The translations under genes were made by a program, and so were the position numbers. The notes under the pieces are model-generated. The model saw nothing but the letters and a program-made list of their open reading frames with translations, was not told the origin of the DNA and did not search any database. A stretch of 64,000 bases of DNA from an uncultured Acidobacteriaceae bacterium (lineage in GTDB: Bacteria > Acidobacteriota > Terriglobia > Terriglobales > Acidobacteriaceae), in the NCBI GenBank assembly GCA_963824315.1, contig CAWGOX010000010.1, positions 50,308 to 114,307 of the forward strand, read 5' to 3'. Below, in pieces: positions 11,479 to 29,292 of the stretch (the stretch's first letter is position 1; each line of letters opens with the position of its first letter).

Positions 11479-11734
11479 GACATTCTCCTTAATAATTGTG
11501 TGTGCGGTCGCAAACGAATCGCTTTCAGCGAAGATGAACCGCTATTTTTTTGCTATCTCTTTATTCGAATCAATCGTGGGACCAAGACTATTGGACGGTC
11601 GAAGGATGTCAAATCAGGCAAATACTGTATTTCGGGGAATCTTCTAGGATATGACGTACCCGCAAACGTCTGAGGACGACAATTTGGTGCTGGGAATTTC
11701 CGCAAGGAATGATGCCAGCGGATTGGAGTGTCTG

Positions 11735-12634
11735 CTAACTTCCTGAGTTGACCATCATCAGAGCAAACAGCGCGGGCAGATAGATCACAGTGGCTCGAAG
11801 TAGCCGGCGGGCCGACGGTTTCGACGCGGGTGCAGTGACCGCAAGTTGTGGATAGGCCATTCCCATTGATACACGGAATAAGGCGGCGCCCATCAGGACG
11901 GCTCCAATTAAATACAGTCGTCCAGCCATCCCCATCGCGACTGGCAAGAGGCTCACCGGAATCAATGCGGCGGAATATGCCAGGATTCGCCACACGGTGG
12001 ATTTTCCGTCGGACTCAACGACAGGCAACATTCGAATCTCGCCTTGCGCGTAGTCCTCGCGATACAGCCATGCGATCGACAAGAAATGGGGAAACTGCCA
12101 GACAAACATGATGGCAAAAAGAATCAGGGCTTCGGGATCGAGTTGCCCGCGCGCTGCCGTCCAGCCGAGGACCACCGGCATGGCGCCTGGGAAAGCTCCC
12201 ACAAATGTGCACACGGGAGAAATTTTCTTAAGGGGTGTATACGCGGCGAGGTATGTAAGCGATGTCAGGAAAACTAATATGCCAGTGAGTAGGTTCGCAT
12301 ACACGACGAGGTAGATTGACCCACCCAATGTCAGGACGAGTCCAACGATGACCGCACGGATTTTCGTCATGCGTCCTGCAGGAAGAGGTCGCATTGCGGT
12401 GCGACGCATTCGTGCATCCACTTTTGATTCGATCACTTCGTTCAACGCTGCGGTGCCGCTGGACACCATCGCTACGCCAAGCAGCGCGTGAACGAGGCCG
12501 AGCGACCACGAGGAGACGCCCATGCGGTGGGCGCCGAAAAAGTATCCCGCCCACGCGGTTAGCACGATGAGAGTCGTGACTCGCGCCTTAGTCAATTCTG
12601 CGTAGTCGCGGAGCAACGAAATTAAATTATGCAA
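11735..12634 (-). CDS. ctaB: protoheme IX farnesyltransferase (heme O synthase)
   Basis: UbiA-family polytopic membrane protein with a NEVIESKVDARMRRT motif (NxxxDxxxD-like). It has the typical CyoE/CtaB length and lies adjacent to a cytochrome oxidase cluster. Confidence 0.9.
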   Translation of the reverse strand: MHNLISLLRDYAELTKARVTTLIVLTAWAGYFFGAHRMGVSSWSLGLVHALLGVAMVSSGTAALNEVIESKVDARMRRTAMRPLPAGRMTKIRAVIVGLVLTLGGSIYLVVYANLLTGILVFLTSLTYLAAYTPLKKISPVCTFVGAFPGAMPVVLGWTAARGQLDPEALILFAIMFVWQFPHFLSIAWLYREDYAQGEIRMLPVVESDGKSTVWRILAYSAALIPVSLLPVAMGMAGRLYLIGAVLMGAALFRVSMGMAYPQLAVTAPASKPSARRLLRATVIYLPALFALMMVNSGS

Positions 12635-12707
12635 TCAGGACCCCTGACCTACGGCTCGATAGACGAAACCACTTGCTGAAAAGCGATTGTGATGACGGCA
12701 AAATAAC

Positions 12708-14066
12708 CTAGTCCGTGCCTCCTGCCGCAGGCACGCTGAAGGTTTCGGGTGGATCAAAATAGCATTGGTGCCACAAGGCAGCATCCGACAATGAGCCCGC
12801 CTTCCATTGCTGGACGGTCGAGAGCGTGGCGGCAATCATGCCGCCGTCAATGGAATCGAAAATCAATACGATCCCGGAAAGTTCTTGCGCTCTAGCGGCC
12901 AAGTCCCCGTAATTCTTGTCGATCAGAGACTTGGCATATTCCAATTTCGCTGGCGCCCCACTATCTTTTTCGTTCTCCTGGATCTTCTGCACTGAAATTA
13001 TTTTTACGTTCTTGCCTCGGAGCGGACCCCAGTCTCCTGGGAAGGGCGCAGTCTCTTCTCTCGTTACTTGAAACAGGTCGGCCGCGACCAGCTTGGACTT
13101 CGCGACACTCTGCGGGATGTCGGAGATACCCTCCGGCATTTCCAGGCTGGTGCGCCAGATCCAGCCGCGGGACAAGCCTGAAATTCGTACGTGGACCCAA
13201 TCAGCATTAAAGTCCAACATCTCAAACTCATCATGAGCGCTGGCTAAAAATAAATTCTTGCCGTTCAGACTAGGCGAAGCGACCACTGGAGTTCCTGATT
13301 TCTTAACTGCGACCAAGTTTTTTGGGTGCGCCTGATTCTTCAGAACATCTTCTAAGCTCGTCGCCTCGGTTTGTAGAGCCGTTTGTGCGGGGTCCGCCGG
13401 CTTCAGCGAATTTTTTGATTCGGCTAACTGTTGGGCTGACAATCCCTGTCGTATTTCTAAAGGAGGGTTTGAAAATGGGCGGTTGCTATCTGGAGTGGTA
13501 GCGGCAGAAGTAGTGGGAGCAGAAATCTCAGATTGCGGAGTCGCGATTTCCGCGTTCTGATTGAACTTGCTTTTCCCTATCGGAGTCGTCGCGCTCGCGC
13601 TGCTGGTTAAGGCCTCACTCAATTGATCCAAGAGATCGGATTCGAGTCGGCCATTCGACGTCACCAGTTGGTATCCCGCGCGCGATGCGACGGGGTCGGC
13701 ATACCAGGCCGTCACTTTCGTATTCACACGAACGAGAGATCCACCGGAGGCCGTCGCTGTCACCTGCACTGCGGATTGATAGAACGCGCGCTGGTAGCGG
13801 CTCAACGGATGCTCGCCCGGAAGCGCGAAACCCTCTAGAGCCGGCAATCGTCCGCTCATTGAAGATTGCAGGTCTTTGAGTGCGCGTTCCACCACGACCT
13901 TCGGCTGACGGTAAGTACGCTCGTGAGTGTCGGTAGCGTCACTCCGGCTGGCATCGTTGGAATGAGTTTGCGCATCGCTCTTTTTTCCACAAACGATCGC
14001 GGTCACCGTCCACAGCAGCAACGGGATCATGACCATAGCGAACCTTGCTGGGCGGGGCTGCTTCAT
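12708..14066 (-). CDS. hypothetical lipoprotein-like secreted protein with a C-terminal bacterial SH3-like domain
   Basis: The start ATG at 14066 overlaps the upstream stop (ATGA). The signal peptide has a TAIVC lipobox-like site. There is a Ser/Thr/Pro linker and an SH3b-like segment DFNADWVHVRISGLSRGWIWRTSLEM. Confidence 0.6.
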   Translation of the reverse strand: MKQPRPARFAMVMIPLLLWTVTAIVCGKKSDAQTHSNDASRSDATDTHERTYRQPKVVVERALKDLQSSMSGRLPALEGFALPGEHPLSRYQRAFYQSAVQVTATASGGSLVRVNTKVTAWYADPVASRAGYQLVTSNGRLESDLLDQLSEALTSSASATTPIGKSKFNQNAEIATPQSEISAPTTSAATTPDSNRPFSNPPLEIRQGLSAQQLAESKNSLKPADPAQTALQTEATSLEDVLKNQAHPKNLVAVKKSGTPVVASPSLNGKNLFLASAHDEFEMLDFNADWVHVRISGLSRGWIWRTSLEMPEGISDIPQSVAKSKLVAADLFQVTREETAPFPGDWGPLRGKNVKIISVQKIQENEKDSGAPAKLEYAKSLIDKNYGDLAARAQELSGIVLIFDSIDGGMIAATLSTVQQWKAGSLSDAALWHQCYFDPPETFSVPAAGGTD

Positions 14067-15205
14067 GGCAACTGCTCCAACTGCTCGCGAAGGATCCATC
14101 CGTGCTGGCCATCGTGAGTTTCGACGCCATACCAATAGGTGGTGGAGATGACGATGAGGACTTCAGCACCGGGTTCCAACGATTTCAGGGTATTTGCTGT
14201 GTGGAATGGAGCGGCCTTTAAAGGCGCCCCCGGATTTTTCACCAACCGTTCGACTTGGTGACGCAACTCCACAACATGCTGTTCGAGCGATACCGGGGAG
14301 TCGTAGGAGTAGTTCAGCAGAGGAGCAACCGGTGCGGAGGGCATAGTGTCCGCGGGTGCGCCTGGATTGCTGCTACTGTACATCGCAGTGGCGGGAGGCG
14401 TACTCAATAACACCGTGTCGTTATTGCTTGCCGAAGTTTCTGCCGGTCTGTTTTGTTCTCCCGACTCGTTGGGCGACCCGCCAGTCCCGACCAAGCCAAA
14501 TTGTTTCTTTGCCGCGTACTCTTGTTTCTGGCGCAATGCCTCCGCGGTTTCTTTCTTCATCAGCTCTGCTGCTTCCAGTTTCGACTCGATGTCCTGATAC
14601 TCGTTGCTCTCAACCGAGCCATTGGATTGATGCGTGGCGTGGCGATAGTCCTCAACAAAAATTGCGTCGATGCGGAGAACAGTATTCTGATTGCCTTGCG
14701 GTTGTACGACGTAGCGCACCGCGAGAGTTCCTACATCGCCGCTGTCTTTAAAGTTTCGCGGATCGAGAGCCTGCAGTCGTACCTTGTAGAAGACCTTGCC
14801 ACCCTCTGTCCAAGTTGGAAACACGGAGGTACTCGGGACTGACGTGGCTCCCGAAACGAACTCATCCTTGTTGTACTCCTTGGTGCCTCGGATGATGGTG
14901 TTCTGTGCGACCTCCTCTACCACCTTGACGACTTCCGGCTCGGGATGAGGGATATTGACGATCAGTCCCGCTCCGTACTCCAGCACATCTTTTTCTCGGC
15001 CGTAGGCTGGGATCGTCGCGAGACACAAGAGAAAGAATAGGGCGGTGAGTTGGGGCAAAGCACGAAAAATTACGTTAAATCGGGAGGAATTCACGCAGCC
15101 GTCCAGATCCTTACCGCGAAAAATCTCGTCCCAATTCACGACTGGCTCCGCTGATGGTGCGTATTCCTGTTGCAGAGTCTCATACACAGGGTCGATTGCT
15201 GTCAA
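14063..15205 (-). CDS. hypothetical membrane-anchored protein with a C-terminal bacterial SH3-like domain
   Basis: Internal hydrophobic anchor LTALFFLLCLATIPAYG, a coiled-coil/low-complexity linker, and a C-terminal LIVISTTYWYGVETHDGQHGWILREQLEQL (SH3b-like). The architecture parallels the downstream gene. Confidence 0.6.
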   Translation of the reverse strand: MTAIDPVYETLQQEYAPSAEPVVNWDEIFRGKDLDGCVNSSRFNVIFRALPQLTALFFLLCLATIPAYGREKDVLEYGAGLIVNIPHPEPEVVKVVEEVAQNTIIRGTKEYNKDEFVSGATSVPSTSVFPTWTEGGKVFYKVRLQALDPRNFKDSGDVGTLAVRYVVQPQGNQNTVLRIDAIFVEDYRHATHQSNGSVESNEYQDIESKLEAAELMKKETAEALRQKQEYAAKKQFGLVGTGGSPNESGEQNRPAETSASNNDTVLLSTPPATAMYSSSNPGAPADTMPSAPVAPLLNYSYDSPVSLEQHVVELRHQVERLVKNPGAPLKAAPFHTANTLKSLEPGAEVLIVISTTYWYGVETHDGQHGWILREQLEQLP

Positions 15206-15292
15206 CTACGTTCGATGGGAACCATTTTCCGGTTGTCAAGCTCGTTTGGGGTGAGGATGTAAACAAATTGTAAAAAATAATTTACCAACCTA

Positions 15293-15321
15293 TTGCAAGT
15301 GACTACACACGGTAGTAATAT
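15293..15321 (+). promoter_or_regulatory. candidate sigma-70-type promoter for the cyc2-like operon
   Basis: TTGCAA (15293-15298), a 17-nt spacer, then TAATAT (15316-15321). It sits in an AT-rich divergent intergenic region about 150 nt upstream of the 15475 start. This is a sequence match only. Confidence 0.25.
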
Positions 15322-15474
15322 CCGTCGCCGTAGGGTTTCAAAGCAATTTTTGTTGTACAGGTTCCGTGAAGCGTTGATCACCGCGTTCGTGATTACGCGA
15401 CGTTAGGAATTCGGTGATTGCCCGAATGTGCTTTAGCTTTTCAAAATACCAAGTCGTAGTCTGAGGAGTGCAGC

Positions 15475-16881
15475 ATGCGTATGTGGGCGCAGTCTTACCT
15501 CTGCCAGAAATCGCAGCGCGTTTCTTCCATCCTCGCCGCTGCTTTCGCGTTCATCTTTCTGATTCTGGGTTCGAGCCAGCAGGCCAACGCGATCCCGGCC
15601 TTCGCCAGAAAATATGGTTTGCGCTGCTCAGCCTGCCATGAAAGTTGGCCGATGCTGAACTTCTTTGGACAAAAGTTCAAAGACAACGGCTATCAGTTGA
15701 TGAATGATCGTGATTCGCCGATTTGGCAGAATCCAGGCTACTGGCCGATTACGTTCCGCATCCTTCCTGTCTGGCATCGGATCAGCACCAACAAGGTTGC
15801 GACCGACCAGAGCCCGACCGGGGAGCAGAAGATCACTTCTTCTGGATTTGACCTTAGCGGTCTGGACTTCCACACTGGCGGCACCCTCGAGAAAAATTTC
15901 TCCTTCTACGTTCTCCCCTCCTCTGACGCAACCGCATCCTTCCACTTTGAAACCGTTATGGCGAGGCTCGACAACGTTGCGGGTAGTTCGTGGTTGAACG
16001 TAAAGTTCGGCAAGTTCGAGCTGGACAATCTGCTTTCCGAGAAACGCATTCTGACGCTGACCGGAAATGGCGGTATCTATCAGCTCTATCACTTCATTCC
16101 TGCTGGCGATGGAAACGTCTTCGGTCAAATGGGAGACAACCAGCTTGGCGTCGAGGTGATGGGTCACTCCTACAACGACAGAACCCGTTATTCGGTAGCT
16201 CTGTTGAGTTCGAACGATGGACAGGTTGGCTTGCCGTACGGCGCCGAATCCTATTCCACGTTCATTACCGCAAGTCAGGCATTCGATGCTGGCAGACTTG
16301 GCGTGGATCGTGTCGGCTTCTACTTGATGGCCGGTCAAGCACCGACCGGTTGGCTCACCACTGGCGGCGCCCCAATACCCGGATCGGGCTACAACAATAA
16401 GGGCTACAGTCGTGAAGGCTTCGTTGGACAGTTCTACTTCGGGCAGCATGTTGACGTGACAGTCGTTACTCAGCACGGCGAAGACAGCGCATGGTTTGGC
16501 CAAGGTTACGGAGATTTGGTCGACGGGGTCGCAACCCAGAACAACATTCCGGGCGTTTCTGTGCTCCCGATGGGTTCGCGAAATCCGACCTGGAATGGCG
16601 TTCTCGTCGAGCCACACTACGTAGTAAGTCCGCAGATGATTTTGTTGGCACGATACGAAACGATTCGCATGTCGCAGCAATCCACACCGGGATCGCCATC
16701 GGATCTCGGAAATGTCACGACCTACACAGCTGGCTTCCGTTACAACCCATTTATGACGAGCCGGGCGGGCTTCGCGTATCACGGCGAGTACAACTTGTTT
16801 CATCAGGTCGGTACCGCGCCTGATGGATCTACCAACTTGAACAGCAGTGAACTCTTATTTGGATTCGACTTCGACTTCTAA
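15475..16881 (+). CDS. Cyc2-like fused monoheme cytochrome c / outer-membrane beta-barrel porin (putative)
   Basis: GAGGAG lies 5 nt before the ATG. The signal peptide ends in QQANA. The mature N-terminus is IPAFARKYGLRCSACH, with a single CxxCH at 15625-15639. The remaining 410 aa or so are rich in alternating Gly/aromatic beta-strand-like segments and end in FGFDFDF, with a terminal Phe as in an OMP beta-signal. Confidence 0.6.
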   Translation: MRMWAQSYLCQKSQRVSSILAAAFAFIFLILGSSQQANAIPAFARKYGLRCSACHESWPMLNFFGQKFKDNGYQLMNDRDSPIWQNPGYWPITFRILPVWHRISTNKVATDQSPTGEQKITSSGFDLSGLDFHTGGTLEKNFSFYVLPSSDATASFHFETVMARLDNVAGSSWLNVKFGKFELDNLLSEKRILTLTGNGGIYQLYHFIPAGDGNVFGQMGDNQLGVEVMGHSYNDRTRYSVALLSSNDGQVGLPYGAESYSTFITASQAFDAGRLGVDRVGFYLMAGQAPTGWLTTGGAPIPGSGYNNKGYSREGFVGQFYFGQHVDVTVVTQHGEDSAWFGQGYGDLVDGVATQNNIPGVSVLPMGSRNPTWNGVLVEPHYVVSPQMILLARYETIRMSQQSTPGSPSDLGNVTTYTAGFRYNPFMTSRAGFAYHGEYNLFHQVGTAPDGSTNLNSSELLFGFDFDF

Positions 16882-16895
16882 CCCCCAGGATGGCC

Positions 16896-16918
16896 GCCGG
16901 AGAACTCAGTTCTCCGGC
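16896..16918 (+). terminator. intercistronic hairpin after the cyc2-like gene
   Basis: Perfect 10-bp stem GCCGGAGAAC / GTTCTCCGGC with a 3-nt loop, 15 nt after the stop codon. There is no U-tract, so it is more likely an attenuator or mRNA-stability element than a full terminator. Confidence 0.4.
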
Positions 16919-16945
16919 GTAGATTTCGGTTGAAGGGTGCTGACC

Positions 16946-17899
16946 ATGTCTAGCTCGACTATGAACTGCTTGAAGCCAATGCGATTTATCTGCGCGATTG
17001 TTTTCACCGCAATCGTGAGCGTGGCACTTGCCTCTGCACAGGATGCGCCCGACGTGGGCCCCAAGCCACCGCTTGCGGTCAAACCGATGGAGAGCCACAT
17101 CGGCAACCTCACCGGACACTCCGAGAGCGCGAAGTCTGACTATCGTCGCTACTGCGCGGGCTGTCATGGGGATTACGGCGATGGCAACGGCGAGAATGCG
17201 GTTTGGCTCGATCCGAAGCCGCGCGACTTCACGATCGCGACTTTTAAGTGCCGGTCCACGTTGACCGGAACGCTGCCTACGGACCAGGATCTTTACAACA
17301 CCATCCAGCGCGGCCTGACTAATTCGAACATGCCGATCTGGAATACGTTTTCCAAGCAACAAAGAGCTGATCTCGTCGCTTACTTGAAGATTTTCTCGCC
17401 ACGCTGGTCGACGGAGAAAGCGGGAGAGCCAATTAAGATTCCCGCCGAGCCGCCGGTCACGATGGATAGCATCGCCCACGGCAAGCTCCTGTTTACAAAG
17501 TTGGAATGCTGGAAGTGTCACGGTCCACATGGTGAAGGTGATGGGCCATCCGCCGCGACTCTTACTGACAGCAAGGACAATCCGATTCGTCCTTACAACT
17601 TCGCACTGGGCAAAGATGACTCGCGCTTCAAGTGTGGAAACACGAATGAGGACATCTACAAAATCTTCATGACGGGTGTGGATGGAACGCCGATGCCATC
17701 ATTCGCGGACGTAATTCAGCCCAACGACGCATGGGATCTCGTCCATTTCCTGCGCACGTTACAGGTTCATCGTCACAGCAAGGAGAATGAAATCTTATCT
17801 GCTGCGCACGGAGTGATTCCGCCGTACGTCGATAAGAATCCGCCACCAGCAGCCGCTCCTGCCCCCGCCGACAACAAGGCGCCCGGCGGAACACGGTAA
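16946..17899 (+). CDS. diheme c-type cytochrome, secreted
   Basis: Two CxxCH motifs (CAGCHGDYGDGNG and CWKCHGPHGEGDG), each followed by a Met-containing distal segment (NMPIW, TPMPSF). The signal/anchor is MRFICAIVFTAIVSVALASA. The start is chosen at the ATG 8 nt after GAAGGG; the track start is 16937. Confidence 0.85.
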   Translation: MSSSTMNCLKPMRFICAIVFTAIVSVALASAQDAPDVGPKPPLAVKPMESHIGNLTGHSESAKSDYRRYCAGCHGDYGDGNGENAVWLDPKPRDFTIATFKCRSTLTGTLPTDQDLYNTIQRGLTNSNMPIWNTFSKQQRADLVAYLKIFSPRWSTEKAGEPIKIPAEPPVTMDSIAHGKLLFTKLECWKCHGPHGEGDGPSAATLTDSKDNPIRPYNFALGKDDSRFKCGNTNEDIYKIFMTGVDGTPMPSFADVIQPNDAWDLVHFLRTLQVHRHSKENEILSAAHGVIPPYVDKNPPPAAAPAPADNKAPGGTR

Positions 17900-17963
17900 G
17901 CTAGTTGCGGAATGGATTGTTACAGATTCATTGCAAATTAAAGACCCCCGAAGGAGTTCTCGA

Positions 17964-18665
17964 ATGCGCTCGAAGCCAGTACTACTCGCTCTTTTGACTT
18001 TCTTGGCTTGTTCCTCTCTGATGTTCGGCGGAACGGTCAAGGGCAAGGTGACCTACACGGGGACGCCTGCCAGGCAGAAACCAATTGACATGTCCAAAGA
18101 GCCGAGCTGCGCCAAGCAGCATGCGACTCCCATTACCACGGAGTCGGTGGTAACCGGTGCCAACAATTCGTTAGAAAACGTCGTAGTGTACGTTTCGGCG
18201 GGTGCGCCGGACGAGAGCGCGGCACCGTCGCAGTCAATCACGTTCGAACAGAAAGGTTGTCAGTATATTCCGCACGTGCTGGTGATGCGCACCAATCAGG
18301 AATTTAAGATCCTCAACGACGACCAGACTTCGCACAACATCCACCCGCTGGCAAAGGTAAACACGGAATGGAATAAATCGCAGCCGCCCGGATCGGCGCC
18401 GATCGTTGCGAAATATGACAAGGAAGAATTTATTCCCGTGAAGTGCAATATCCATCCCTGGATGCACGGCAATTTCGTCGTTCTGAAGACCTCGCACTAC
18501 GACGTCAGTAAGTCGGGCGGCGAATTCACCCTCCCAAATCTTCCTCCGGGTAAGTACACCCTCACCGCGTGGCAAGAAGATTACGGTACGCAGACGGCCG
18601 ACGTCACGATCACCGGCAACGAGACCAAGGACGTCAGCTTCGTGTTTAAAGCGAAAGCCTATTAA
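17964..18665 (+). CDS. type-1 copper (amicyanin-like cupredoxin) protein flanked by carboxypeptidase-regulatory-like beta-sandwich segments
   Basis: GAAGGAG lies 7 nt before ATG 17964. The signal peptide has an FLAC site. The candidate copper ligand set is SHNIHP ... KCNIHPWM; the C-x2-H-x2-M spacing matches the amicyanin CTPHPFM motif. The C-terminal segment is GGEFTLPNLPPGKYTLTAW. Confidence 0.7.
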   Translation: MRSKPVLLALLTFLACSSLMFGGTVKGKVTYTGTPARQKPIDMSKEPSCAKQHATPITTESVVTGANNSLENVVVYVSAGAPDESAAPSQSITFEQKGCQYIPHVLVMRTNQEFKILNDDQTSHNIHPLAKVNTEWNKSQPPGSAPIVAKYDKEEFIPVKCNIHPWMHGNFVVLKTSHYDVSKSGGEFTLPNLPPGKYTLTAWQEDYGTQTADVTITGNETKDVSFVFKAKAY

Positions 18666-18684
18666 GCGAGCGTTATTGGTCGAT

Positions 18685-18717
18685 CTAGGCGGAGATGGCT
18701 CGTGCATCTCCGCCTAG
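18685..18717 (+). terminator. strong hairpin between the cupredoxin gene and coxB
   Basis: Perfect 12-bp stem CTAGGCGGAGAT / ATCTCCGCCTAG with a 9-nt loop, 20 nt after the stop codon, followed by CTTCCCTAAAAA. It has no classic U-tract. Confidence 0.45.
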
Positions 18718-18768
18718 CTTCCCTAAAAACCCAGACATTCAAAGCTGATTCCACGAGGGCATAGCATC

Positions 18769-19572
18769 ATGGGCAAACTGTTTGCAGTGACTCTTGTCAT
18801 CATCGCGATTCTTTCCGCGATTCCTATCTTGCGACACACTTGGCCGATTCCAGAGGACATTTCGACCCACGGGCACCTGATCGATGAACAGATGTCGGAG
18901 ACGATGGCGGAAGCGGGCATCGCCTTTCTCGCGGCGCAATTTTTGCTGGCTCTGTTTGTGTGGCAATCGTCGAATCGTGCGCCTGACGCCAAGTTGAAGA
19001 GATTTCCTGGCGGTGCTACTGGGTTGGTACTGGCCGCGTTACTAGTGGTCGGAATCGAAGTGCTCGCGCTCGGAGTATTTGGAGTGAAAGCTTGGGCCAA
19101 CCAATATCTCACTCCGCCGTCCGCTGACGCTATGAAGATTCAAGTGCAGGCCGGACAGTTTGCCTACTACTTCCGCTATCCCGGGCCGGATGGAACATTC
19201 GGTGCGCTTCATCCCGAAATGATCAACGAAGGATCACAGAATTTCTTCGGCCTCGATCCCGAACACGATGCGGATTCCAGGGATGACGTCGTTGCTGCAG
19301 AGATGGCTATCCCTGTAAATAAGGAAATCCATCTGCTGATGCATGCCAAAGATGTGGGACATTCATTTTTCGTGCGTGAGTTGCGGGTACAGCAGGACTT
19401 TGTTCCGGGATTAGATGTTTCGCTCCATTTCACGGCGACCAAAGTCGGCAAGTACGAAATCGTCTGCACGCAACTTTGCGGACTGGGTCACTACAACATG
19501 AAAGCGTATCTCGAAGTGATGTCGCAGGCGGACTTCGATGATTGGATGAAGAAAGAACAGGCTCTGCAGTAG
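18769..19572 (+). CDS. coxB: cytochrome c oxidase subunit II (no fused cytochrome c domain)
   Basis: Two N-terminal transmembrane segments and a cupredoxin domain with DVGHSFFV and the CuA motif CTQLCGLGHYNM. At 267 aa it is too short to carry a caa3-type heme c domain. Confidence 0.9.
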   Translation: MGKLFAVTLVIIAILSAIPILRHTWPIPEDISTHGHLIDEQMSETMAEAGIAFLAAQFLLALFVWQSSNRAPDAKLKRFPGGATGLVLAALLVVGIEVLALGVFGVKAWANQYLTPPSADAMKIQVQAGQFAYYFRYPGPDGTFGALHPEMINEGSQNFFGLDPEHDADSRDDVVAAEMAIPVNKEIHLLMHAKDVGHSFFVRELRVQQDFVPGLDVSLHFTATKVGKYEIVCTQLCGLGHYNMKAYLEVMSQADFDDWMKKEQALQ

Positions 19573-19630
19573 CGCTTGCAAACGCCGCGCTTAGGCGCGG
19601 CTAACTGGTAAGTCTCTGAGGTGAGGGTCA

Positions 19631-21415
19631 ATGCACGACATGGCGGCGCATGCGGCGCAACATCATACGGCTCCGACAAGTTTCATCCGGAAGCACGTGT
19701 TCAGCCTGGATCACAAAGTAATCGGCAAGCAGTATTACGCCTTGGCGCTGGTCGCTGCTCTGGTGGGAATGGCGCTTTCGTGGCTGATGCGAATCCATTT
19801 GGCTTGGAACAGCGCTGCCATTCCTGGACTGCAATTGCTCTCGAAGACCGGCGCCCCCGGCGGAGTGATGACTCCGGAATACTACCTCCAACTGATGACC
19901 ATGCACGGCACGATCATGGTCTTCTTTGTGCTTACGACGGCGCCGTTCGCGGCGTTCGGCAATTATTTTCTGCCCATCCAGGTCGGCGCAGAGGACATGC
20001 CCTTCCCCCGTTTCAACATGATGTCCTTCTGGGTCACGTTTACGGCGTTCCTGGTGTTGGTGTCGTCATTCTTTATCGGAGACGGTCCGACACTGGGAGG
20101 ATGGACGCAATACGCTCCGCTGAATTCAGTGGGCTCGGTTGCAGGTCCGGGACAGGGAGCCGGCGTAATTCTGTGGATGATATCCATCGCGCTATTTTGC
20201 GTTGGACAGTTGCTGGGCTCGTTGAACTTTATTACGACGACGCTGGATCTTCGAGTCAAAGGCATGAGCCTGATGCGACTGCCGCTGACTGCTTGGGCAT
20301 GGTTCATTACTTCTTGCATGGGGCTAACGGCGTTTGCAGTACTCATGCCAGCGTGCATTCTCGTCATTCTCGATCACGTCGCGGGAACCAGTTTCTTCGT
20401 CGCATCGAATCTCGTGATCAACGATCAGCTGCAGCCGCACTCTGGTGGATCCACACTGCTCTGGCAGCATCTTTTCTGGTTCTTTGGACATCCCGAGGTT
20501 TACATTGCGATCGTGCCGGGCATCGGAATCGTTTCCCACATTCTGATCACCAGCATGCGCAAGCCGATGCTGAGCCAGCGCGTACTTATTTATTGCATGG
20601 GCGCTCTCGCGGTGCTCAGCTACATGGTGTACGGGCATCACATGTTTGTCAGCGGCATGAATCCTTATTCGGCGCTGGCATTTTCGTTTCCGACCTTGGT
20701 GATCACGATCCCGGCCACGATTACGGTGTTGATCTGGGTCTTTAGTTTGTACGGATCCAAGTTACGCATCAATTCAGCTTCGTTATTTTCGCTGGGATTT
20801 ATTTCGATGTTCGTCAGTGGCGGCGTCAGCGGATTCTTTCTGGCGCAGCCTTCGATCGACATTCAGTTGCATGGTACATACTTCGTCGTCGGCCACTTCC
20901 ACATGGTTATGGGCGTGGCTGCGATGTTCGGCATCTTCGCTGGAACTTATTTTTGGTTCCCGAAAATGGCTGGGCGCATGATGAGCGAGACTCTCGGCAA
21001 ACTTCATTTCTGGCTGAGCTTCGTAGGGACTTACTGTATCTTCATGCCATTCCATTATTTGGGGATGGTTGGAAACGTCCGTCGCTACGCATCGTTCGTG
21101 GACGACTATTTGCAACCGTTGATTCCGGTACATCGCTACATCACGATCGCAGCGCTTTTGACCGGCGCGGCACAGCTGATTTTTGTCTACAACCTTATTC
21201 ACAGCCGCTTCTGGGGCAAGCCCGCTCCGGATAATCCGTGGGAAGCGACTTCGCTGGAGTGGAGCACGGCTACGCCGCCTCCGTTTGATAATTTCGGCGG
21301 CAAACATCCCGTGGTGTATCACGATCCGTATCAGTACGGGGTCAAGAGTTCAGTGGGTGATTACGTGATGCAGACTTCGCCGGAGCAAGTTGCGACCGAC
21401 CACGATGAGAAGTGA
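19631..21415 (+). CDS. coxA: cytochrome c oxidase subunit I (A-family heme-copper oxidase)
   Basis: WFFGHPEVYI, GHHMFVSGM, HFHMVMG and 12 or more transmembrane segments. Confidence 0.95.
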   Translation: MHDMAAHAAQHHTAPTSFIRKHVFSLDHKVIGKQYYALALVAALVGMALSWLMRIHLAWNSAAIPGLQLLSKTGAPGGVMTPEYYLQLMTMHGTIMVFFVLTTAPFAAFGNYFLPIQVGAEDMPFPRFNMMSFWVTFTAFLVLVSSFFIGDGPTLGGWTQYAPLNSVGSVAGPGQGAGVILWMISIALFCVGQLLGSLNFITTTLDLRVKGMSLMRLPLTAWAWFITSCMGLTAFAVLMPACILVILDHVAGTSFFVASNLVINDQLQPHSGGSTLLWQHLFWFFGHPEVYIAIVPGIGIVSHILITSMRKPMLSQRVLIYCMGALAVLSYMVYGHHMFVSGMNPYSALAFSFPTLVITIPATITVLIWVFSLYGSKLRINSASLFSLGFISMFVSGGVSGFFLAQPSIDIQLHGTYFVVGHFHMVMGVAAMFGIFAGTYFWFPKMAGRMMSETLGKLHFWLSFVGTYCIFMPFHYLGMVGNVRRYASFVDDYLQPLIPVHRYITIAALLTGAAQLIFVYNLIHSRFWGKPAPDNPWEATSLEWSTATPPPFDNFGGKHPVVYHDPYQYGVKSSVGDYVMQTSPEQVATDHDEK

Positions 21416-21451
21416 TTTAACTAACTAGTTAGTTAAATGAATTAATTTCCT

Positions 21452-22141
21452 ATGGCAACTACAGTACATGAACCGCCCAAGATCGACTCCAGCCGTTTGC
21501 CTGATGCTCAGCGTTCGGATCGAATTACGGATAATGGCGGTTGGCGAAATCTGGTTCCGGCGGGAGGAGACGTCCGGACCGCGTTCAAATATTCTCCGCC
21601 GCCATCCGCTACCGGCATCTGGGTCGTGATTTTTGCGATCACGATGATGTTCGCGGCGTTCACGAGCGCGTTGTTTGTGCGCAAGGGATCGTCTCTAGAC
21701 TGGCAGGGCTTTACGTTGCCGCCGATCCTCTATTTCAACACCCTGCTGCTTGTTGCCAGCGGAGTCACGTTGGAAATCGCGCGTCGTCGCGTGGCTACAT
21801 TCATGGGCGGTGTGAGGAGTCAGTTGGAAAGTCCTGCGCGATGGTTGTACATCACTTTGGCGCTAGGCCTACTCTTCGTGGCCGGACAGTATGTCGCCTG
21901 GTCTCAGTTGAGAGCCCGCGGACTCTATCTGGCAACGAATCCCAGCAGTTCATTTTTCTATGTACTGACTGTTACTCACGTCCTGCACGTTTTAGGTGGA
22001 CTCGGCGGACTGCTGTATGTGATCCGCAAGCTGAGTAAGTCGAACCTGCGAAGAAGCCAACTCGACGCGACGGCTCGCTACTGGCATTTTATGGGTGGGC
22101 TTTGGATTTACCTGCTCTTGCTGTTATGGGTGAAGCTTTAG
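21452..22141 (+). CDS. coxC: heme-copper oxidase subunit III family protein (copy 1)
   Basis: Multi-transmembrane protein with FFYVLTVTHVLHVLGG and ARYWHFMGGLWIYL, which are subunit III signatures. Confidence 0.85.
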   Translation: MATTVHEPPKIDSSRLPDAQRSDRITDNGGWRNLVPAGGDVRTAFKYSPPPSATGIWVVIFAITMMFAAFTSALFVRKGSSLDWQGFTLPPILYFNTLLLVASGVTLEIARRRVATFMGGVRSQLESPARWLYITLALGLLFVAGQYVAWSQLRARGLYLATNPSSSFFYVLTVTHVLHVLGGLGGLLYVIRKLSKSNLRRSQLDATARYWHFMGGLWIYLLLLLWVKL

Positions 22142-22191
22142 CAGATTGAATATTTCGTGATGGATCGTTTGACTGAGTAACGGGAGGCGAT

Positions 22192-22812
22192 GTGAGCCAA
22201 GCGGATTTGACCATGGAAACGCACGGGACCGGACTGATGGTAGGTCCCGCGTTTTCTATTCCTACGAAAAAGCTGGCGATGTGGCTGTTCATCATCGCCG
22301 ACACGATGACATTCGCGGCGTGTCTCGTGGCTTACGGATTCGTGCGCAATGGCTCTCCGAATTGGCCACGGCCATTCCACAGCATCCTCAACGTGTCGCT
22401 GATGACTTTTATTCTGCTGACGAGCAGCTTAACGATGCTACTGGGAGTGCGGGCGGCGAGGTTGGGTGACAAAGCGGCCGCGTTCCGCTGGACGATGATT
22501 ACGGCGGCGGCGGGAATTCTATTCGCGTTGCTACATATCAGAGAATGGATGGGGCTGATCGACGAAGGCATGACGATGTTCAAGAATCCCTGGGGCACTG
22601 GACTCTTCGGCGCATCGTTCTTCACGGTTACTGGCTTGCACCTTACACACGTTACCGGCGGCATTATCGCGCTGATCGTTGTAGGGCTTCGCTACAGGGG
22701 TGGACGCTATAACGCGGACGATATCGAAATCCTCGGTCTGTACTGGCACTTCGTAGATCTGGTGTGGATGTTCGTTGTGCCGTTGGTCTACCTGTTGAAT
22801 CTTGCACACTAG
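22192..22812 (+). CDS. coxC: heme-copper oxidase subunit III family protein (copy 2)
   Basis: GTG start 4 nt after GGGAGG. Contains FFTVTGLHLTHVTGG and GLYWHFVDLVWMFV. Confidence 0.85.
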   Translation: MSQADLTMETHGTGLMVGPAFSIPTKKLAMWLFIIADTMTFAACLVAYGFVRNGSPNWPRPFHSILNVSLMTFILLTSSLTMLLGVRAARLGDKAAAFRWTMITAAAGILFALLHIREWMGLIDEGMTMFKNPWGTGLFGASFFTVTGLHLTHVTGGIIALIVVGLRYRGGRYNADDIEILGLYWHFVDLVWMFVVPLVYLLNLAH

Positions 22813-22847
22813 ATTGGAAGAGTTTGGAAAAGTCAGGAGCGAAGGCC

Positions 22848-23171
22848 ATGGCAACGACACAAGCGCAAAACGGGACCGCTGAGGGAATTGGAAAAATTCT
22901 CTTTATCTATATTTGTCTGTTGGTGTTGGCTGGTTTGCAATTTGTAATCGCCTACCAAAATATTGATACGTCGCAAATGTTGATGCGGATGATGACGGTT
23001 GCGATCATCGAAGCTGGATTGGCGGGCATGTTCTTCATGCACTTGTGGTCCGAAAAGCGCGGTTTTATGCTCTTTGTAGTGGTATTTACGGTTTTTGTTC
23101 TTCTAGCGATGCAATACGGATGGACCGATAGTTCGAGGATGGTGGTGGGAGCGCCGTTTTCAAAGTTATGA
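22848..23171 (+). CDS. coxD: prokaryotic cytochrome oxidase subunit IV-like small membrane protein
   Basis: ATG at 22848 lies 8 nt after AGGAG. Three transmembrane segments and a GMFFMHLW motif typical of the COX4_pro family. The track ORF start at 22764 overlaps coxC and lacks a ribosome-binding site. Confidence 0.65.
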   Translation: MATTQAQNGTAEGIGKILFIYICLLVLAGLQFVIAYQNIDTSQMLMRMMTVAIIEAGLAGMFFMHLWSEKRGFMLFVVVFTVFVLLAMQYGWTDSSRMVVGAPFSKL

Positions 23172-23452
23172 CGCCGCGAATCTACAAGCAGACGTTGTCG
23201 CAAATGCTGTTCCGAACTCGGTTAATGAAGGTTGTGCTCGCCGGGCTGACCCTCCTCGCTTCCTCGCTTCCAGCTTTCTCACAAGGTTGCGCGCTGTGCT
23301 ACACGTCAGCGGCTTCCTCGGGCAATCGAATGATTCAGGCACTGCAAAGTGGAATTCTGATTTTGATCGTCCCACCAACACTCATGTCTGTCTTGATGAT
23401 TTTTATCGTGTATCGGAAACGCAATCAGTTTCGTAACGACGATGCTTCGTAG
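23168..23452 (+). CDS. small secreted/membrane-anchored CxxC protein, function unknown
   Basis: ATGA overlap with the coxD stop codon. Signal-like MKVVLAGLTLLASSLPAFS-QG, then CALC, then one C-terminal transmembrane segment (ILILIVPPTLMSVLMIFIVY) followed by RKRNQ. Confidence 0.5.
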   Translation: MTPRIYKQTLSQMLFRTRLMKVVLAGLTLLASSLPAFSQGCALCYTSAASSGNRMIQALQSGILILIVPPTLMSVLMIFIVYRKRNQFRNDDAS

Positions 23453-23472: not shown

Positions 23473-24861
23473 CTAAAAGAGTAACTTTCCACTATTTGAA
23501 TTCTGCTCGATGTATTTCTTGCTGTTGAATTTCTTTCCAGTGCTGGCGCCTGACATGTAGCGAATCAGCCCAAAGATAGGGCGATCAAACCAGGGCCGGT
23601 CGAATTTTCCTACGATTGACCACGCAATTCCCGCGTAGCCGTTGGGATCGCGGCCATCGAGTTCGTATTTATCATTGAGTTGTACAGCAATCTGATACGC
23701 CTGCGCTGCTGACGGGCTCCATTCCAGAATTTTTTTCGCCCAGTACATCCGCAGGTAGTTGTGCATCCAGCCAGTGTTCGTCATCTGACTTTGAGCCGCA
23801 TTCCAAAGTTCATCGTGAGTTTCGGCGTGCTCCAATTGCTGCTCGCTATAGAGAACGGGACGATCATCGTTCGCGTGCGCTGCCAAAGTACGATGGGCCC
23901 ACGGTTCTCCGCATTCAAAATTGTCGTAGTTAGGATTGAAGCGAACCAGGTTCACCGCCAGTTCCCGCCACGTAATGATTTGGTTTAGGAACGCCTCTTT
24001 GTCTTCTTTCGGAGCGTCGGCCTTTTCGACGGCCAGCGCAACCGTGATCGGACTGATATGTCCGAAGTGCAGATACGGCGAGAGGCGGCTGGTTCCGCTC
24101 AGCTCTGGTTTGTTGCGGAGGGTCGCGTAGGATTGCAATCCGTTCTTAAGAAAGTTATCCAATAATCGCAGAGCCTCTTTTGTGCCGCCGCGAAAGCCCG
24201 AGACTGGACCCACTGAAGTATCGAGCGGCCAATTCTGGGTGATATCAAATCCGGTATCAAGCGATTGAATTTCTGCGGGCTGATGCCATGCAACTTTCGC
24301 TTTCACGGTTGGGGATGCCACCAAAAAGCGCCCGAGCAACGCCTGCAATCGTGGTCGGATGATATGCGCTGCGTATTGTTCTTTCTGGAGTAGGTAGGAG
24401 GGCACGATAACGTCCGCGTCCACTGTCCACAAGGGCAGCACTAGCTTTGTTGCAGCCTTGCGCCGCCACGAGTCGAGCTCACGCATCGGATTCTCATCAC
24501 CGATCACGAGGGCAGCATTTACTTCTGTGCAGAATTTGATCAGGCTGTGTTCGGGGAACCGCCGCAGAATGAATCCGATGTTTCGCCGCTCTAGAGCTTC
24601 GGCGATGTCCGGAATGCCTTCGTTCAGGAAGCGATAGTGGCGCAGGTTGGCGTGGGGATAATAGGGGACGGGCGCGAAGAAAACGACCACTGGCTTTCCC
24701 AGTGCATTAGCGGCTTCGACCGCAACATCGAGCGCAGGATTATCCAAACCGCGCTGTGCCCGCTGCATCCAGTACACGACACAAGTGCCGTTGGGGGACG
24801 GAGGTCCTGAGCGCCGCACGGTCACGCGCGGATCGCTAGCCAGTCGACTTAGATCGTCCAA
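23473..24861 (-). CDS. phr: deoxyribodipyrimidine photolyase, class II CPD type
   Basis: VVYWMQRAQRGLDNPAL at the N-terminus. FAD-domain motifs SRLSPYLHFGHISP and WMHNYLRMYWAKKILEW, plus the C-terminal GLIRYMS. This pattern fits class II rather than class I photolyases. Confidence 0.9.
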   Translation of the reverse strand: MDDLSRLASDPRVTVRRSGPPSPNGTCVVYWMQRAQRGLDNPALDVAVEAANALGKPVVVFFAPVPYYPHANLRHYRFLNEGIPDIAEALERRNIGFILRRFPEHSLIKFCTEVNAALVIGDENPMRELDSWRRKAATKLVLPLWTVDADVIVPSYLLQKEQYAAHIIRPRLQALLGRFLVASPTVKAKVAWHQPAEIQSLDTGFDITQNWPLDTSVGPVSGFRGGTKEALRLLDNFLKNGLQSYATLRNKPELSGTSRLSPYLHFGHISPITVALAVEKADAPKEDKEAFLNQIITWRELAVNLVRFNPNYDNFECGEPWAHRTLAAHANDDRPVLYSEQQLEHAETHDELWNAAQSQMTNTGWMHNYLRMYWAKKILEWSPSAAQAYQIAVQLNDKYELDGRDPNGYAGIAWSIVGKFDRPWFDRPIFGLIRYMSGASTGKKFNSKKYIEQNSNSGKLLF

Positions 24862-24899
24862 TGAAAGCCATCCATTTGAAGTTCTTCAGGATATTCAGA

Positions 24900-25142
24900 T
24901 CACATCAACCAGGATGGCGCGACTTTCGATGCAGAGCCAATGACAATCTCGTCAAATTCGGCTCGGTTCATCTGAGTCAGGACTGCCTCAGCGTCGGTCG
25001 CTTCGCGTCTCACTCGTGCTGTTCGGAGCAGGTCGTTTAACAATCCCAAGCGACGGGTGAGATCAAGGATCAGCTCGATCCGTTGCTGGGTGGTCATTTC
25101 GCCCGCCAACTCAATTTGTGGAACTACCGGCTTTGCAAACAT
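24900..25142 (-). CDS. hypothetical protein (80 aa)
   Basis: An ORF that exactly fills the gap between the cfa-like gene and phr on the same strand. I recognise no motif. Confidence 0.35.
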   Translation of the reverse strand: MFAKPVVPQIELAGEMTTQQRIELILDLTRRLGLLNDLLRTARVRREATDAEAVLTQMNRAEFDEIVIGSASKVAPSWLM

Positions 25143-25312
25143 GAGTCACCCTTTCGCGAACACTTTTCAACTCATCCGATTTAACAGTAGATCAACCGCT
25201 CTTCACTAAGAATCAAATACTCAAAGGCTGTCGCTCTGGTTTGAATCACGCGACAATAAGTGGGGTGCCAATTGCTTTTGGAGAAAACACCTCCAGCGGC
25301 ATTCACCGCTCT

Positions 25313-26422
25313 TCAGTTGCGAAACACGTAGTGCGATACGAGCCATTCCTGGCCTCCGCGGTAACCCCATAGTTCCGCGCAAGCCATGAAAAAGACGCGC
25401 CAGTGGACGAACCAACGAAGAGTTTCTGCTTTCGCTTGTTTCAACGGAAGCCTTTTAGCATAGGTCTCAGCGAAAAGATCAAGTATCTCCGGGCGATTCG
25501 CGTCCATGTTGTTAAGCCAGGCTTCGGCAGTCTTTTGGTAGTGAGTACCGTTCACTTGCCAATGGTTTTGTAATCGCAAATCGCGCTGGAAATACAAGAG
25601 CAAATCGTCGCTCGGCATGATCCCGCCTGTAAAGAAATGGCGAGCCATCCAATCGCTTTCATCTTTAATGTCGAAGGGATAAGCAAACCGCGCATTCGTA
25701 AAAATGTGGACGAAGAGTTTGGCACCCGGTCGCATCCATGAAGAAATACGCTGTAGCAACATTTCGTAATTCCGCATGTGTTCAAACATTTCGACTGAGA
25801 CCACGCGATCAAATTTCGCGGCCGCTTCGAAGTCGTTCATGTCTGCGGTGAGGACGGTCAGGTTATCGAGACATCGCGCCTTGGCTTGGGCATCGATGAA
25901 CCGCTTTTGGGAAGAAGAATTGGAAACGCTGACAATGGTGGATTGAGGAAAGCGTTCCGCCATCGACAGAGAGAGCGATCCCCATCCGCAGCCGAGTTCA
26001 AGCACTCGCTGACCGTTGGCCAATTCCGCGCGTTCCATGGTGAGAGAGAGCATCGCTGCTTCCGCTTGATCCAGGGTAGTGGTACCGTCCTGCCATAGTG
26101 CGGAGCTGTACTTCAGGTGCTTGCCAAGTGCTAATTCGAAAAAGCGTGCAGGGACTTCGTAGTGCTGAGCGTTCGCAGCCGCAGTTTCAATCGCGATTGG
26201 CCCGTTCTTTAACTCCTGAATGAATTGCATCAAATGGGACTGCTGCATTTCCGGTGAGGCTTTGGTCTCGTCCCGCAAACGTTGACGCAGCAGACGTCGT
26301 ATGCCGGCGCGGATCAGCAAATCGGGAACCAAGTCGCGCTCGAGTAAAGCGAGGTCCCATGAACTTTCTCCCGCTCGAGAATGCGCCGATGTGGTCCGTG
26401 TCATCGTTTGTGTGTCGTTCAT
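25313..26422 (-). CDS. cyclopropane-fatty-acyl-phospholipid synthase family SAM-dependent methyltransferase
   Basis: [24 protein letters not shown], the SAM motif [11 protein letters not shown], and the FEHM and [12 protein letters not shown]-terminal signatures of the CFA synthase / mycolic acid methyltransferase family. Confidence 0.85.
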
Positions 26423-26461
26423 ATCGCAATGCCTTTCATGGCGATCATTGAAGAAGAGGGA

Positions 26462-27085
26462 TTACTTGTGGTCTTGGGTGAGCGCTGCGCTTAGACTCGC
26501 GGCCTTGGCTTCATCGAAGATGCCTTGCGATCTCCACAAGACGTCGCCATTCCGATTGACCAGAAATTCGTAGATCGTCTTTTGATCATCGATAAGAAGC
26601 GCTTCGCAAAACGGCTTCTTATCCAGATATAAAGTGATGGTGCGTTCGCGTGCATTGCGATCTGGTATGCCTCGCCGCATGCCGCTATCAATGAACCAGC
26701 GTGTGAGGGCCATCGGCCTCTCGATCGTGGGCAACTCGTAATATTGAAAGTTCAGACGACCCGAGCCTTGGTTCAGATTTTCGAATCGTTTCATTTCTCG
26801 GAGCCAGGTATCGACATCTTTTTGCTGCTCTCGCTCGAAGGCCACCAAGAGAAGATTGTTGTCGCCTTCGAAATCGGTGGGCAAATTGAAAGAACGTTTT
26901 TCGAGGTTGGATGCCGTTAGGGTGGGGAAGTGCCCCATCCGACGGCTCTCCGTCGATGCCACGGCCATGGTTCCTCCAAAATACAGCGTTAGCGTGAAAA
27001 TAATAGTCGTTATAACGACTATTATTGTGGTAGCCGCGACTTGTCTATCCTGCTTCCTTATGGTCGATAGCAGATGTTTGCTCAC
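26462..27085 (-). CDS. membrane-anchored hypothetical protein
   Basis: N-terminal transmembrane segment (ATTIIVVITTIIFTLTLYFGG). ATGA-type 4-nt overlap with the upstream DUF1295 gene. No recognised catalytic motif. Confidence 0.5.
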   Translation of the reverse strand: MSKHLLSTIRKQDRQVAATTIIVVITTIIFTLTLYFGGTMAVASTESRRMGHFPTLTASNLEKRSFNLPTDFEGDNNLLLVAFEREQQKDVDTWLREMKRFENLNQGSGRLNFQYYELPTIERPMALTRWFIDSGMRRGIPDRNARERTITLYLDKKPFCEALLIDDQKTIYEFLVNRNGDVLWRSQGIFDEAKAASLSAALTQDHK

Positions 27086-27873: not shown

Positions 27874-27920
27874 CTAAAACCCAAGAATGCACTAGCGTAG
27901 CGGTATCAATGTCACAAACT

Positions 27921-29271: not shown

Positions 29272-29292
29272 TCGATGGGTGGATCGTAACAC

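Follow-up and report, generated by a model that had tools for sequence, protein, structure and literature searches.

Nine consecutive genes on the + strand of a stretch of DNA from an uncultured Acidobacteriaceae bacterium (GenBank assembly GCA_963824315.1, contig CAWGOX010000010.1, positions 50,308 to 114,307) are the subject of this analysis. The stretch, 64 kb long and hereafter called the window, carries them at 15475-23452: a gene for a Cyc2-family fused cytochrome-porin comes first, genes for a diheme cytochrome c and a cupredoxin-like protein follow, and the remainder specify an aa3-type heme-copper oxidase together with a small membrane protein. Our reading – to which we attach a probability of about 0.5 – is that these genes constitute a single respiratory operon, providing a path for electrons from an extracellular reductant, most likely Fe(II), to O2. 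A literature search found no paper that describes a Cyc2-headed aa3 oxidase operon of Terriglobales; Cyc2 homologues in Acidobacteriota had already been noticed by sequence similarity network (SSN) analysis (PMC10654088) and in FeGenie surveys.

We infer the substrate, the direction of electron flow and the docking of the carriers along the following path. The Cyc2-family protein, presumably located in the outer membrane, would take electrons from a dissolved reductant, likely Fe(II), either free or organically complexed. These would be accepted by the periplasmic diheme cytochrome c, after which the diheme cytochrome, the copper protein or both would reduce the CuA centre of an A1-type aa3 oxidase that itself has no heme c; the oxidase would then reduce O2 and build proton-motive force. 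Among the possible substrates Fe(II) is the likeliest: its oxidation has been demonstrated for all three characterised Cyc2 members, AfCyc2, Cyt572 and the Cyc2 of strain PV-1 (Keffer et al., PMC8406198).

Conservation of the operon and its leading gene

The preliminary description of this DNA listed the genes of the operon correctly, each at its coordinates and on the + strand. Its range also took in a last open reading frame (ORF) of 94 codons at 23168-23452, which its gene list left unnamed. The gaps between the nine genes run from -4 to about 100 bp. Relatives were collected with a pattern scan derived from 11 aligned sequences and applied to one genome per GTDB species; at least 580 stretches encode relatives, and the locus counts given here refer to the best 80 of them (59-81% identity). 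The first five genes are collinear in all 73 loci that contain them and all nine stand in the same order in 64 of the 80, with nearly all of the loci that fall short of nine breaking off at the end of a contig: the arrangement is far beyond chance. Median identity to the window is 83% for CoxA, 74% for CoxB, 70% for the Cyc2-like protein, 62% for the diheme cytochrome c and 50% for the cupredoxin-like protein. At 70% against 74% for CoxB the porin-cytochrome is thus about as constrained as the oxidase subunits, and is unusually conserved for a porin.

The best 80 loci all come from metagenome-assembled genomes (MAGs), many of them from bog, palsa and peat, with soil also a source; these are habitats with iron redox cycling. 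They are labelled Acidobacteriaceae, Terriglobales, Terriglobia, Acidobacteriota/Acidobacteria or Candidatus Sulfotelmatobacter, the one exception (L063) being labelled Verrucomicrobiia. Further protein searches and cluster look-ups for cultured hosts gave just 'hypothetical protein' entries of MAG or metagenome origin.

The region upstream of the operon (269 bp) contains three elements conserved by phylogenetic footprinting, for which we aligned 45 orthologous intergenic regions and took a column as conserved at 80% or more. The first, at 15258-15276 (+), consists of the direct repeats TGTAAA / TGTAAAAA; the second, at 15293-15321 (+), is a promoter-like TTGCAA-17 nt-TAATAT; and the third is a ribosome-binding site, GAGGAGT, at 15463-15469 (+), 5 nt ahead of the ATG of the first gene and itself at least 80% conserved among the orthologues. 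This threshold is also reached by the columns TGTAAA, TGTAAAAA, CTTGCA and GTAGTA..AT. A generic promoter and terminator scan of the window returned nothing above chance, and because the element at 15293-15321 scores under the sigma-70 threshold of that scan it is put forward as a putative promoter only. Together, the repeats, the promoter-like element and the ribosome-binding site fit a single transcription unit headed by the Cyc2-like gene, and we infer that the nine genes are co-transcribed. The two TGTAAA direct repeats, which immediately precede the promoter-like element, make a candidate binding site for a regulator. An Rfam scan of the window gave zero matches.

The first protein, encoded at 15475-16881 (+) and 468 residues long, is a genuine Cyc2-family fused monoheme cytochrome-porin, as is evident from its motif, its length and a predicted barrel of 16 strands; the Cyc2-like identity first proposed for it is thereby borne out. 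Keffer et al. 2021 (mBio, PMC8406198) describe Cyc2 as a protein of 365 residues or more that has a signal peptide, a single CXXCH, the motif AXPXFAR[Q/K][T/Y] a few residues before the CXXCH, a PXL four residues after it, and a porin of 16 strands that resembles OprO/OprP. In the window protein a signal peptide, read from the sequence as a hydrophobic stretch ending ...SSQQANA, lies just ahead of IPAFARKY, a layout also present in 23 diverse relatives. The Cyc2 motif, AIPAFARKY-GLR-CSACH-ESW-PML, occupies residues 39-61 (15589-15657) and is found in 80/80 orthologues; its CSACH at residues 51-55 (C51-H55) is the sole CXXCH of the protein, which ends in FDFDF and is longer than 365 residues.

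Domains of the window proteins were assigned with Pfam and NCBIfam, and structures were modelled with AlphaFold2 and compared with the PDB by Foldseek; phmmer and profile searches were also run against the PDB. Pfam and NCBIfam gave no family match for the Cyc2-like protein. Its model, computed with 24 diverse relatives, has a predicted local distance difference test (pLDDT) score of 78, a predicted template modelling (pTM) score of 0.78 and 16 beta-strands. The top Foldseek match in the PDB is OprP (2o4v, E = 2e-12), followed by PorB and by OprO (4rjw, E = 2e-11); OprP, OprO and PorB are the same structural matches as those published for Cyc2 (PMC8406198) and for Cyt572 of Leptospirillum (PMC10654088). 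An exhaustive HMMER search for Cyc2 relatives produced 2276 clusters at 50% identity. Among 23 diverse full-length relatives, every one has a single N-terminal CXXCH followed by WP/FP-x-L; the strict string P-x-F-A-R-[QK]-[TYF] occurs in 15 of them, and in the remaining eight its place is taken by near variants, among them FARKH, FAKKY and FSRR. Cyt572 falls in a similarity cluster with homologues from Acidobacteria and Nitrospira (PMC10654088).

Electron carriers and oxidase

The second gene (16937-17899, +) encodes a periplasmic diheme class I cytochrome c of about 300-320 residues, with a signal peptide, heme sites CAGCH at residue 73 and CWKCH at residue 191, and a Pro/Ala-rich tail. Pfam recognises both Cytochrom_C and Cytochrome_CBB3, in two stretches each. 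Its match to PDB chain 6h5l_B (E = 1.6e-54) extends across residues 62-275 and so covers both heme domains, over which the homology is clear. The entry 6h5l is an HAO structure of Kuenenia stuttgartiensis, and chain B is, we take it, the diheme Kustc0457, a soluble redox partner of HAO; there, however, it serves an anammox bacterium as partner of an octaheme HAO-like enzyme and not of a Cyc2-like porin or an oxidase. The other PDB matches (phmmer, E <= 1) are to c552, alternative complex III (ACIII) and bc subunits, and none of the chains found at E <= 1 is named cytochrome c4; the cytochrome c4 structure of Acidithiobacillus ferrooxidans, 1H1O, is presumably present in the PDB. Since no cytochrome c4 chain appears at this threshold, we do not regard the protein as an orthologue of Cyc1.

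Comparison with distant relatives shows which of the associations are old. An orthologous diheme cytochrome c follows the Cyc2-like gene in L081 (46% identity, E = 9e-74) and in L090 (41%). In L088, an Acidoferrales-like genome whose Cyc2-like protein is 49% identical, the same operon is present with one coxC. Further out, P0203 (Cyc2-like 30%) has reordered cox genes along with SCO1, a CarboxypepD_reg protein and diheme cytochromes c, of which there are two: the same links recur although the order differs, which argues for a functional and not merely historical linkage. The oxidase is not nearby in L081 and L082 (Cyc2-like 35%) or in L090 (29%), in all of which the orthologous diheme cytochrome c adjoins, nor in P0506, where a Cyc2-like protein for which BLASTP reported no alignment is paired with a cytochrome c of two Pfam domains; in P0154 (34%) the Cyc2-like gene stands alone. 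From these contexts the Cyc2-like/diheme pair is the ancient core, and the link to the aa3 oxidase and the cupredoxin is an elaboration at the level of Terriglobia. Closer to the window, L070 has at 10022-14243 (67-69% by tblastn) the trio formed by the first three genes of the operon and, after it, ctaB, a heme O synthase gene, with no cox gene in the next 7 kb; the trio is therefore separable from the oxidase.

Two details of L081 deserve mention. The diheme cytochrome c that comes after its Cyc2-like gene (11318-12520) carries a fused OmpA peptidoglycan-binding domain at its C-terminus, and would therefore be tethered beneath the outer membrane. The third gene of this locus looks by eye like a cupredoxin gene; Pfam found nothing in it and we make no claim.

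The occurrence of Cyc2-like/diheme pairs away from an oxidase in distant relatives would also suit a flow in the opposite direction, in which the pair exports electrons to extracellular Fe(III) or humics at low O2 and the oxidase is co-located because of shared carriers. Some subdivision 1 Acidobacteria do reduce Fe(III) (Hausmann et al.). Nonetheless, an O2 reductase with heme a biosynthesis alongside is the opposite of what anaerobic export would need. Moreover, the outward conduits known to us use multiheme cytochromes and not a monoheme porin fusion. We consider a reversed flow very improbable.

The third gene encodes a protein of 233 residues when read from the ATG at 17964 (17964-18665, +; the ORF opens at 17931). 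It is plausibly cupredoxin-like, with a candidate type 1 copper site. Following an N-terminal hydrophobic helix, a domain of ~140 residues is inserted in a CarboxypepD_reg beta-sandwich composed of the first strand and the last ~60 residues. AlphaFold2 modelled the sandwich confidently; pLDDT is 67 overall and 50-70 in the inserted copper domain. The candidate copper ligands – H124/H127, C161, H164 and M167 – do not vary among 35 homologues, and the CNIHPWM loop, encoded at 18444-18464, conforms to C-[NQ]-[IV]-H-P-W-M in 72/78 orthologues. The C-x2-H-x2-M spacing is, we take it, that of amicyanin. Pfam assigns CarboxypepD_reg (E = 1e-9), while Cupredoxin_1 reaches only E = 0.009 and 16.4 bits, under its cutoff of 27. 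Foldseek matches of the model are weak (E 2e-3 to 5e-2, target-normalised TM-score 0.47-0.66) and almost all are to amicyanin, plastocyanin, pseudoazurin or Cupredoxin_1; a 35-sequence profile searched against the PDB gives E = 0.1 for 5fc9, a blue copper protein, and E = 0.4 for amicyanin. The loop had been called amicyanin-like in the preliminary description, and both its ligand spacing and the weak fold matches agree with that. Whether single sequence or profile was used, no PDB chain named rusticyanin was found at E <= 10; nor was any chain named AcoP, the presence of AcoP in this copy of the PDB being unchecked.

The same protein has a second set of invariant residues, C49, H53, C99 and H104 (in EPSCAKQH and KGCQYIPH), from which a disulfide or a further metal site might arise. 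In some of the related genomes a STAS-domain (anti-sigma-antagonist-like) gene of ~287 codons stands between the cupredoxin-like gene and coxB (L003 13337-14200; L083-L087 ~13363-14229), and its insertion in this subset is a hint of partner-switching regulation.

The oxidase is an A1-type heme-copper aa3 enzyme with a canonical subunit I. CoxA (19631-21415, +, 594 residues) matches Pfam COX1 (PF00115) at E = 7e-124 and TIGR02891 (CtaD_CoxA) with 532 bits; the D-channel Glu motif GHPEVY at residue 286 is present in 68/68 orthologues, and the nearest PDB chains are subunit I of the mycobacterial and Paracoccus aa3 oxidases (E = 1e-105 to 1e-99). CoxB, the subunit II of 267 residues that precedes it (18769-19572, +; Pfam COX2, NCBIfam CoxB), has as its nearest solved structure subunit II of the Rhodobacter sphaeroides aa3 oxidase (E = 3e-15). 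Its CuA site comprises H198 and then C233-T-Q-L-C237-G-L-G-H241-Y-N-M244, the loop CTQLCGLGHYNM falling at residues 233-244 (window 19465-19500). As the preliminary description held, CoxB carries no fused heme c: CXXCH is absent here and from all 76 orthologues (0/76), and with the heme c domain absent CoxB needs soluble electron donors. The suspicion that CTQLCG is a feature of the lineage was also well founded. The Gln of the loop, which stands in place of the canonical Glu, aligns with the Glu of R. sphaeroides CSELCG and is found in 71/71 complete orthologues; to our eye the loop CTQLCGLGHYNM resembles that of the B-family Thermus ba3 oxidase, presumably CNQYCGLGHQNM, though CoxA is A1-type.

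Two COX3-family subunits follow, CoxC1 (21452-22141, +, 229 residues; Pfam COX3, E = 1e-8) and CoxC2 (22192-22812, +, 206 residues; COX3, E = 9e-12, and NCBIfam CtaE/QoxC/CyoC-like, E = 1e-26), each of them kept in 66 loci. CoxD, subunit IV, has 107 residues from the ATG at 22848 (22848-23171, +; the ORF opens at 22764) and matches COX4_pro at E = 3e-7; its counterparts in neighbouring genomes are called at 103-104 residues. The start of the last ORF (23168-23452, +, 94 residues) overlaps the coxD stop. Its product, with no family match in Pfam or NCBIfam, has a signal peptide, a CxxC motif (GCALCY at residue 40) and a C-terminal transmembrane helix, and is possibly an oxidase assembly factor or a factor that handles copper or thiols. 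The ORF is found in 61 loci and the CxxC is kept in all 66 orthologous ORFs read.

Electron donor and the place of the operon in respiration

A central issue is whether the operon is dedicated to an extracellular donor, and several observations weigh against this. Being lineage-wide and part of the core genome, with a housekeeping-like identity and heterotrophic hosts, it may simply be an aerobic oxidase. The operon spans at least hundreds of Terriglobales species, a spread that accommodates the lineage-wide constitutive oxidase named by the preliminary description as a refuting case. No carbon-fixation (autotrophy) genes are found in the window. The L070 trio has no adjacent cox genes, and several distant Cyc2-like/diheme pairs have no oxidase nearby; the cupredoxin assignment of the third protein, for its part, draws on a low-confidence model and sub-threshold matches. 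Nor is membership of the Cyc2 family a guarantee of Fe(II)-oxidising growth: Burkholderia, Ralstonia and Xanthomonas are not known to oxidise iron. Many homologues from these three were dropped from the tree of Keffer et al. as coming from over-sampled genera (PMC8406198). Finally, the acidobacterial Cyc2 homologues fall near Cyt572, in Cluster 3 (PMC10654088), the function of which has been called 'most uncertain' (Keffer et al., PMC8406198).

The main alternative is a general aerobic oxidase, one of the chief terminal oxidases of the lineage, whose dedicated soluble carriers, the cupredoxin and the diheme cytochrome c, are fed by bc1 or alternative complex III in organotrophic respiration. 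The Cyc2-like protein would then be an accessory – an optional side entry, a means of detoxifying Fe(II) at the surface, or a redox sensor – and not the principal supplier of electrons. The operon is lineage-wide, highly conserved and situated in the core chromosome; autotrophy genes are absent from its vicinity; a CoxB devoid of heme c needs soluble carriers whatever the source of electrons; and cultured Acidobacteria and Sulfotelmatobacter MAGs have been described as organotrophs with low-affinity A-type oxidases. However, the A-type oxidases that Trojan et al. (2021) describe from cultured Acidobacteria are of the caa3 kind, their genes lying in superoperons together with those for bc1 or ACIII. 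The operon in the window shares with these bc1-A1 caa3 and ACIII-A2 caa3 superoperons an A-family oxidase, including an A1-type CoxA with HPEVY; it differs in specifying an aa3 oxidase, with neither heme c nor complex III genes nearby, and in being headed by a presumed outer-membrane cytochrome and the two carriers. Furthermore, the Cyc2-like gene comes first in the operon and is as conserved as CoxB, which makes a dispensable accessory role hard to accept. On balance we think it rather unlikely that the operon is no more than a general oxidase, while recognising that this explanation and Fe(II) oxidation are partly compatible: the oxidase could take electrons from both routes. As a source of expression evidence we considered MAG CO124 (Dyksma & Pester 2023) and set it aside; it is Sulfopaludibacter-like (subdivision 3) and thus of another lineage, and the oxic induction of its caa3 oxidase is uninformative here.

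The same architecture might also serve a different substrate, such as Mn(II), reduced humic or quinone moieties, or some other soluble reductant of peat. A role in Mn(II) oxidation has reportedly been suggested for a Cyc2 homologue of 'Candidatus Manganitrophus', and peat is rich in redox-active organic matter. The uncertain function of Cluster 3 is in keeping with such a role (Keffer et al., PMC8406198), but the three characterised members all oxidise Fe(II), and a single heme within the lumen of a porin, the same authors argue, is suited to small ions in solution (PMC8406198). We judge a substrate other than Fe(II) to be improbable, and retain Fe(II) as the likely donor.

Known iron-oxidising systems and the genomic setting

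The closest comparison is to the rus operon of A. ferrooxidans, the order of which is cyc2-cyc1-cup-coxBACD-rus, 'cup' being a copper protein (Cup/AcoP) (PMC10654088). The preliminary description, which gave this order with an ORF in place of cup, agrees with the published one; since that ORF is itself a cupredoxin gene, the match is closer than was then stated. Over their first seven positions the two operons agree in the kind of protein encoded and in its place in the order, CoxB is without a heme c domain in both, and ctaB is adjacent in both. The differences are nonetheless substantial. Here the diheme cytochrome is Kustc0457-like and not of the c4/Cyc1 type; the copper protein is set in a CarboxypepD_reg sandwich, and no similarity of it to chains named AcoP or rusticyanin was detected; there are two coxC genes and a CxxC membrane ORF; and no further cupredoxin gene, hence no counterpart of rus, exists within 15475-23452. 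The rus host is an extreme acidophilic autotroph, whereas the host here is presumably a heterotrophic acidobacterium of peat or soil. Transposases and integrases are reported on the flanks of rus operons (PMC10654088), whereas the operon described here is in the core chromosome.

The claim that the module is syntenic with rus therefore stands in part. The order cyc2-diheme c-copper protein-coxBACD is shared; shared ancestry of the carriers is not upheld, given that their PDB searches found no chain named cytochrome c4 (E <= 1), AcoP or rusticyanin (E <= 10), and the parallel is further loosened by the missing rus gene, the extra coxC and the location in a core chromosome without mobile elements. 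Judging by sequence comparison, what appears homologous to rus is just the Cyc2-family protein and generic A-type oxidase subunits, with carriers that seem non-orthologous. The likeness is functional, not orthologous: the operon is an analogue of the downhill branch of rus and stands outside the rus operon family.

Parallels with other systems are less extensive. Cyt572 of Leptospirillum has the same N-terminal layout as the Cyc2-like protein, with its CXXCH at identical residue numbers (C51-C54-H55). The Leptospirillum genes differ in being unclustered and in feeding a cbb3 oxidase through bc1 (PMC10654088). A likeness to Cyt579 of the same genus lies in a weak, sub-threshold match of the diheme cytochrome c to the NCBIfam model cytochrome579 (52 bits against a cutoff of 280, E = 7e-14).

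Neutrophilic organisms that use Cyc2 (Mariprofundus PV-1, Gallionellaceae, Chlorobium; Cluster 1) are lithoautotrophs in which the oxidase is typically of the cbb3 type and cyc2 as a rule does not share an operon with it. Their Cyc2 and that of the window have in common the defining motif and the fused cytochrome-porin design, as well as a proposed logic that runs from Fe(II) oxidation at the outer membrane through periplasmic cytochromes to a terminal oxidase (Keffer et al., PMC8406198).

The setting of the operon bears on its history. GC content is uniform across the window (0.51-0.57), the flanks carry housekeeping genes (glycogen enzymes, ferrochelatase, F1Fo ATP synthase), and no integrases, transposases or other mobile-element genes are found in the 64 kb. 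On these grounds we reject horizontal acquisition for this window; the operon seems to have passed down vertically as a core trait of its lineage. A broader proposition – that a dedicated Fe(II):O2 chain is a vertically inherited core trait of a dominant group of uncultured Terriglobales of peat and soil, genomes labelled Candidatus Sulfotelmatobacter among them, and a rus analogue built independently from a Cyc2-like porin-cytochrome, a Kustc0457-type diheme cytochrome and a new cupredoxin – we advance tentatively and with some doubt.

Were it true, abundant 'heterotrophs' would be facultative oxidisers of iron (or of Mn or humics), and overlooked as major agents of iron cycling at the oxic-anoxic interfaces of acidic wetlands. 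Terriglobales are among the most abundant bacteria of acidic soils and peat, and the founding description of Sulfotelmatobacter records dissimilatory iron genes as absent (Hausmann et al.). In this regard a Cyc2-family gene directly ahead of oxidase genes is stronger contextual evidence than bare metagenome hits to Cyc2. The harvesting of energy from Fe(II) at redox interfaces would bear on models of the stability of iron-bound carbon and of wetland greenhouse-gas fluxes. The operon would, in addition, be an instance of a rus-like chain put together with carriers that are not orthologous, and it offers three small redox proteins fit for expression, including an uncharacterised cupredoxin architecture.

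Among the neighbouring genes, a CtaB/CyoE-like heme O synthase (protoheme IX farnesyltransferase), which is needed for heme a, is encoded at 11735-12634 on the - strand (Pfam UbiA, E = 3e-46); ctaB lies beside the operon, upstream or downstream, in 72 loci. Between it and the operon are two divergently oriented genes for conserved hypothetical proteins of 475 and 380 residues (12708-15205, -), which match no family significantly and SH3_3 weakly (E = 0.004 and 0.04). These are syntenic in 66 and 74 of the 80 loci, respectively, and also in L088, and their products may belong to the system of the operon. A multicopper oxidase of 632 residues (Cu-oxidase_2, Cu-oxidase_3) is encoded 29 kb downstream of the operon at 52727-54625 (+); enzymes of that kind can be laccases or Fe(II)/Mn(II) oxidases. 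Adjoining the operon on its downstream side, a cluster at 23473-33660 contains genes for a photolyase, a CarH-like regulator (MerR and B12-binding), a fatty-acid desaturase, an amine-oxidase-like flavoprotein, a DUF1365 protein and two methyltransferases resembling cyclopropane-fatty-acid synthases, and looks like a light-responsive membrane-lipid module.

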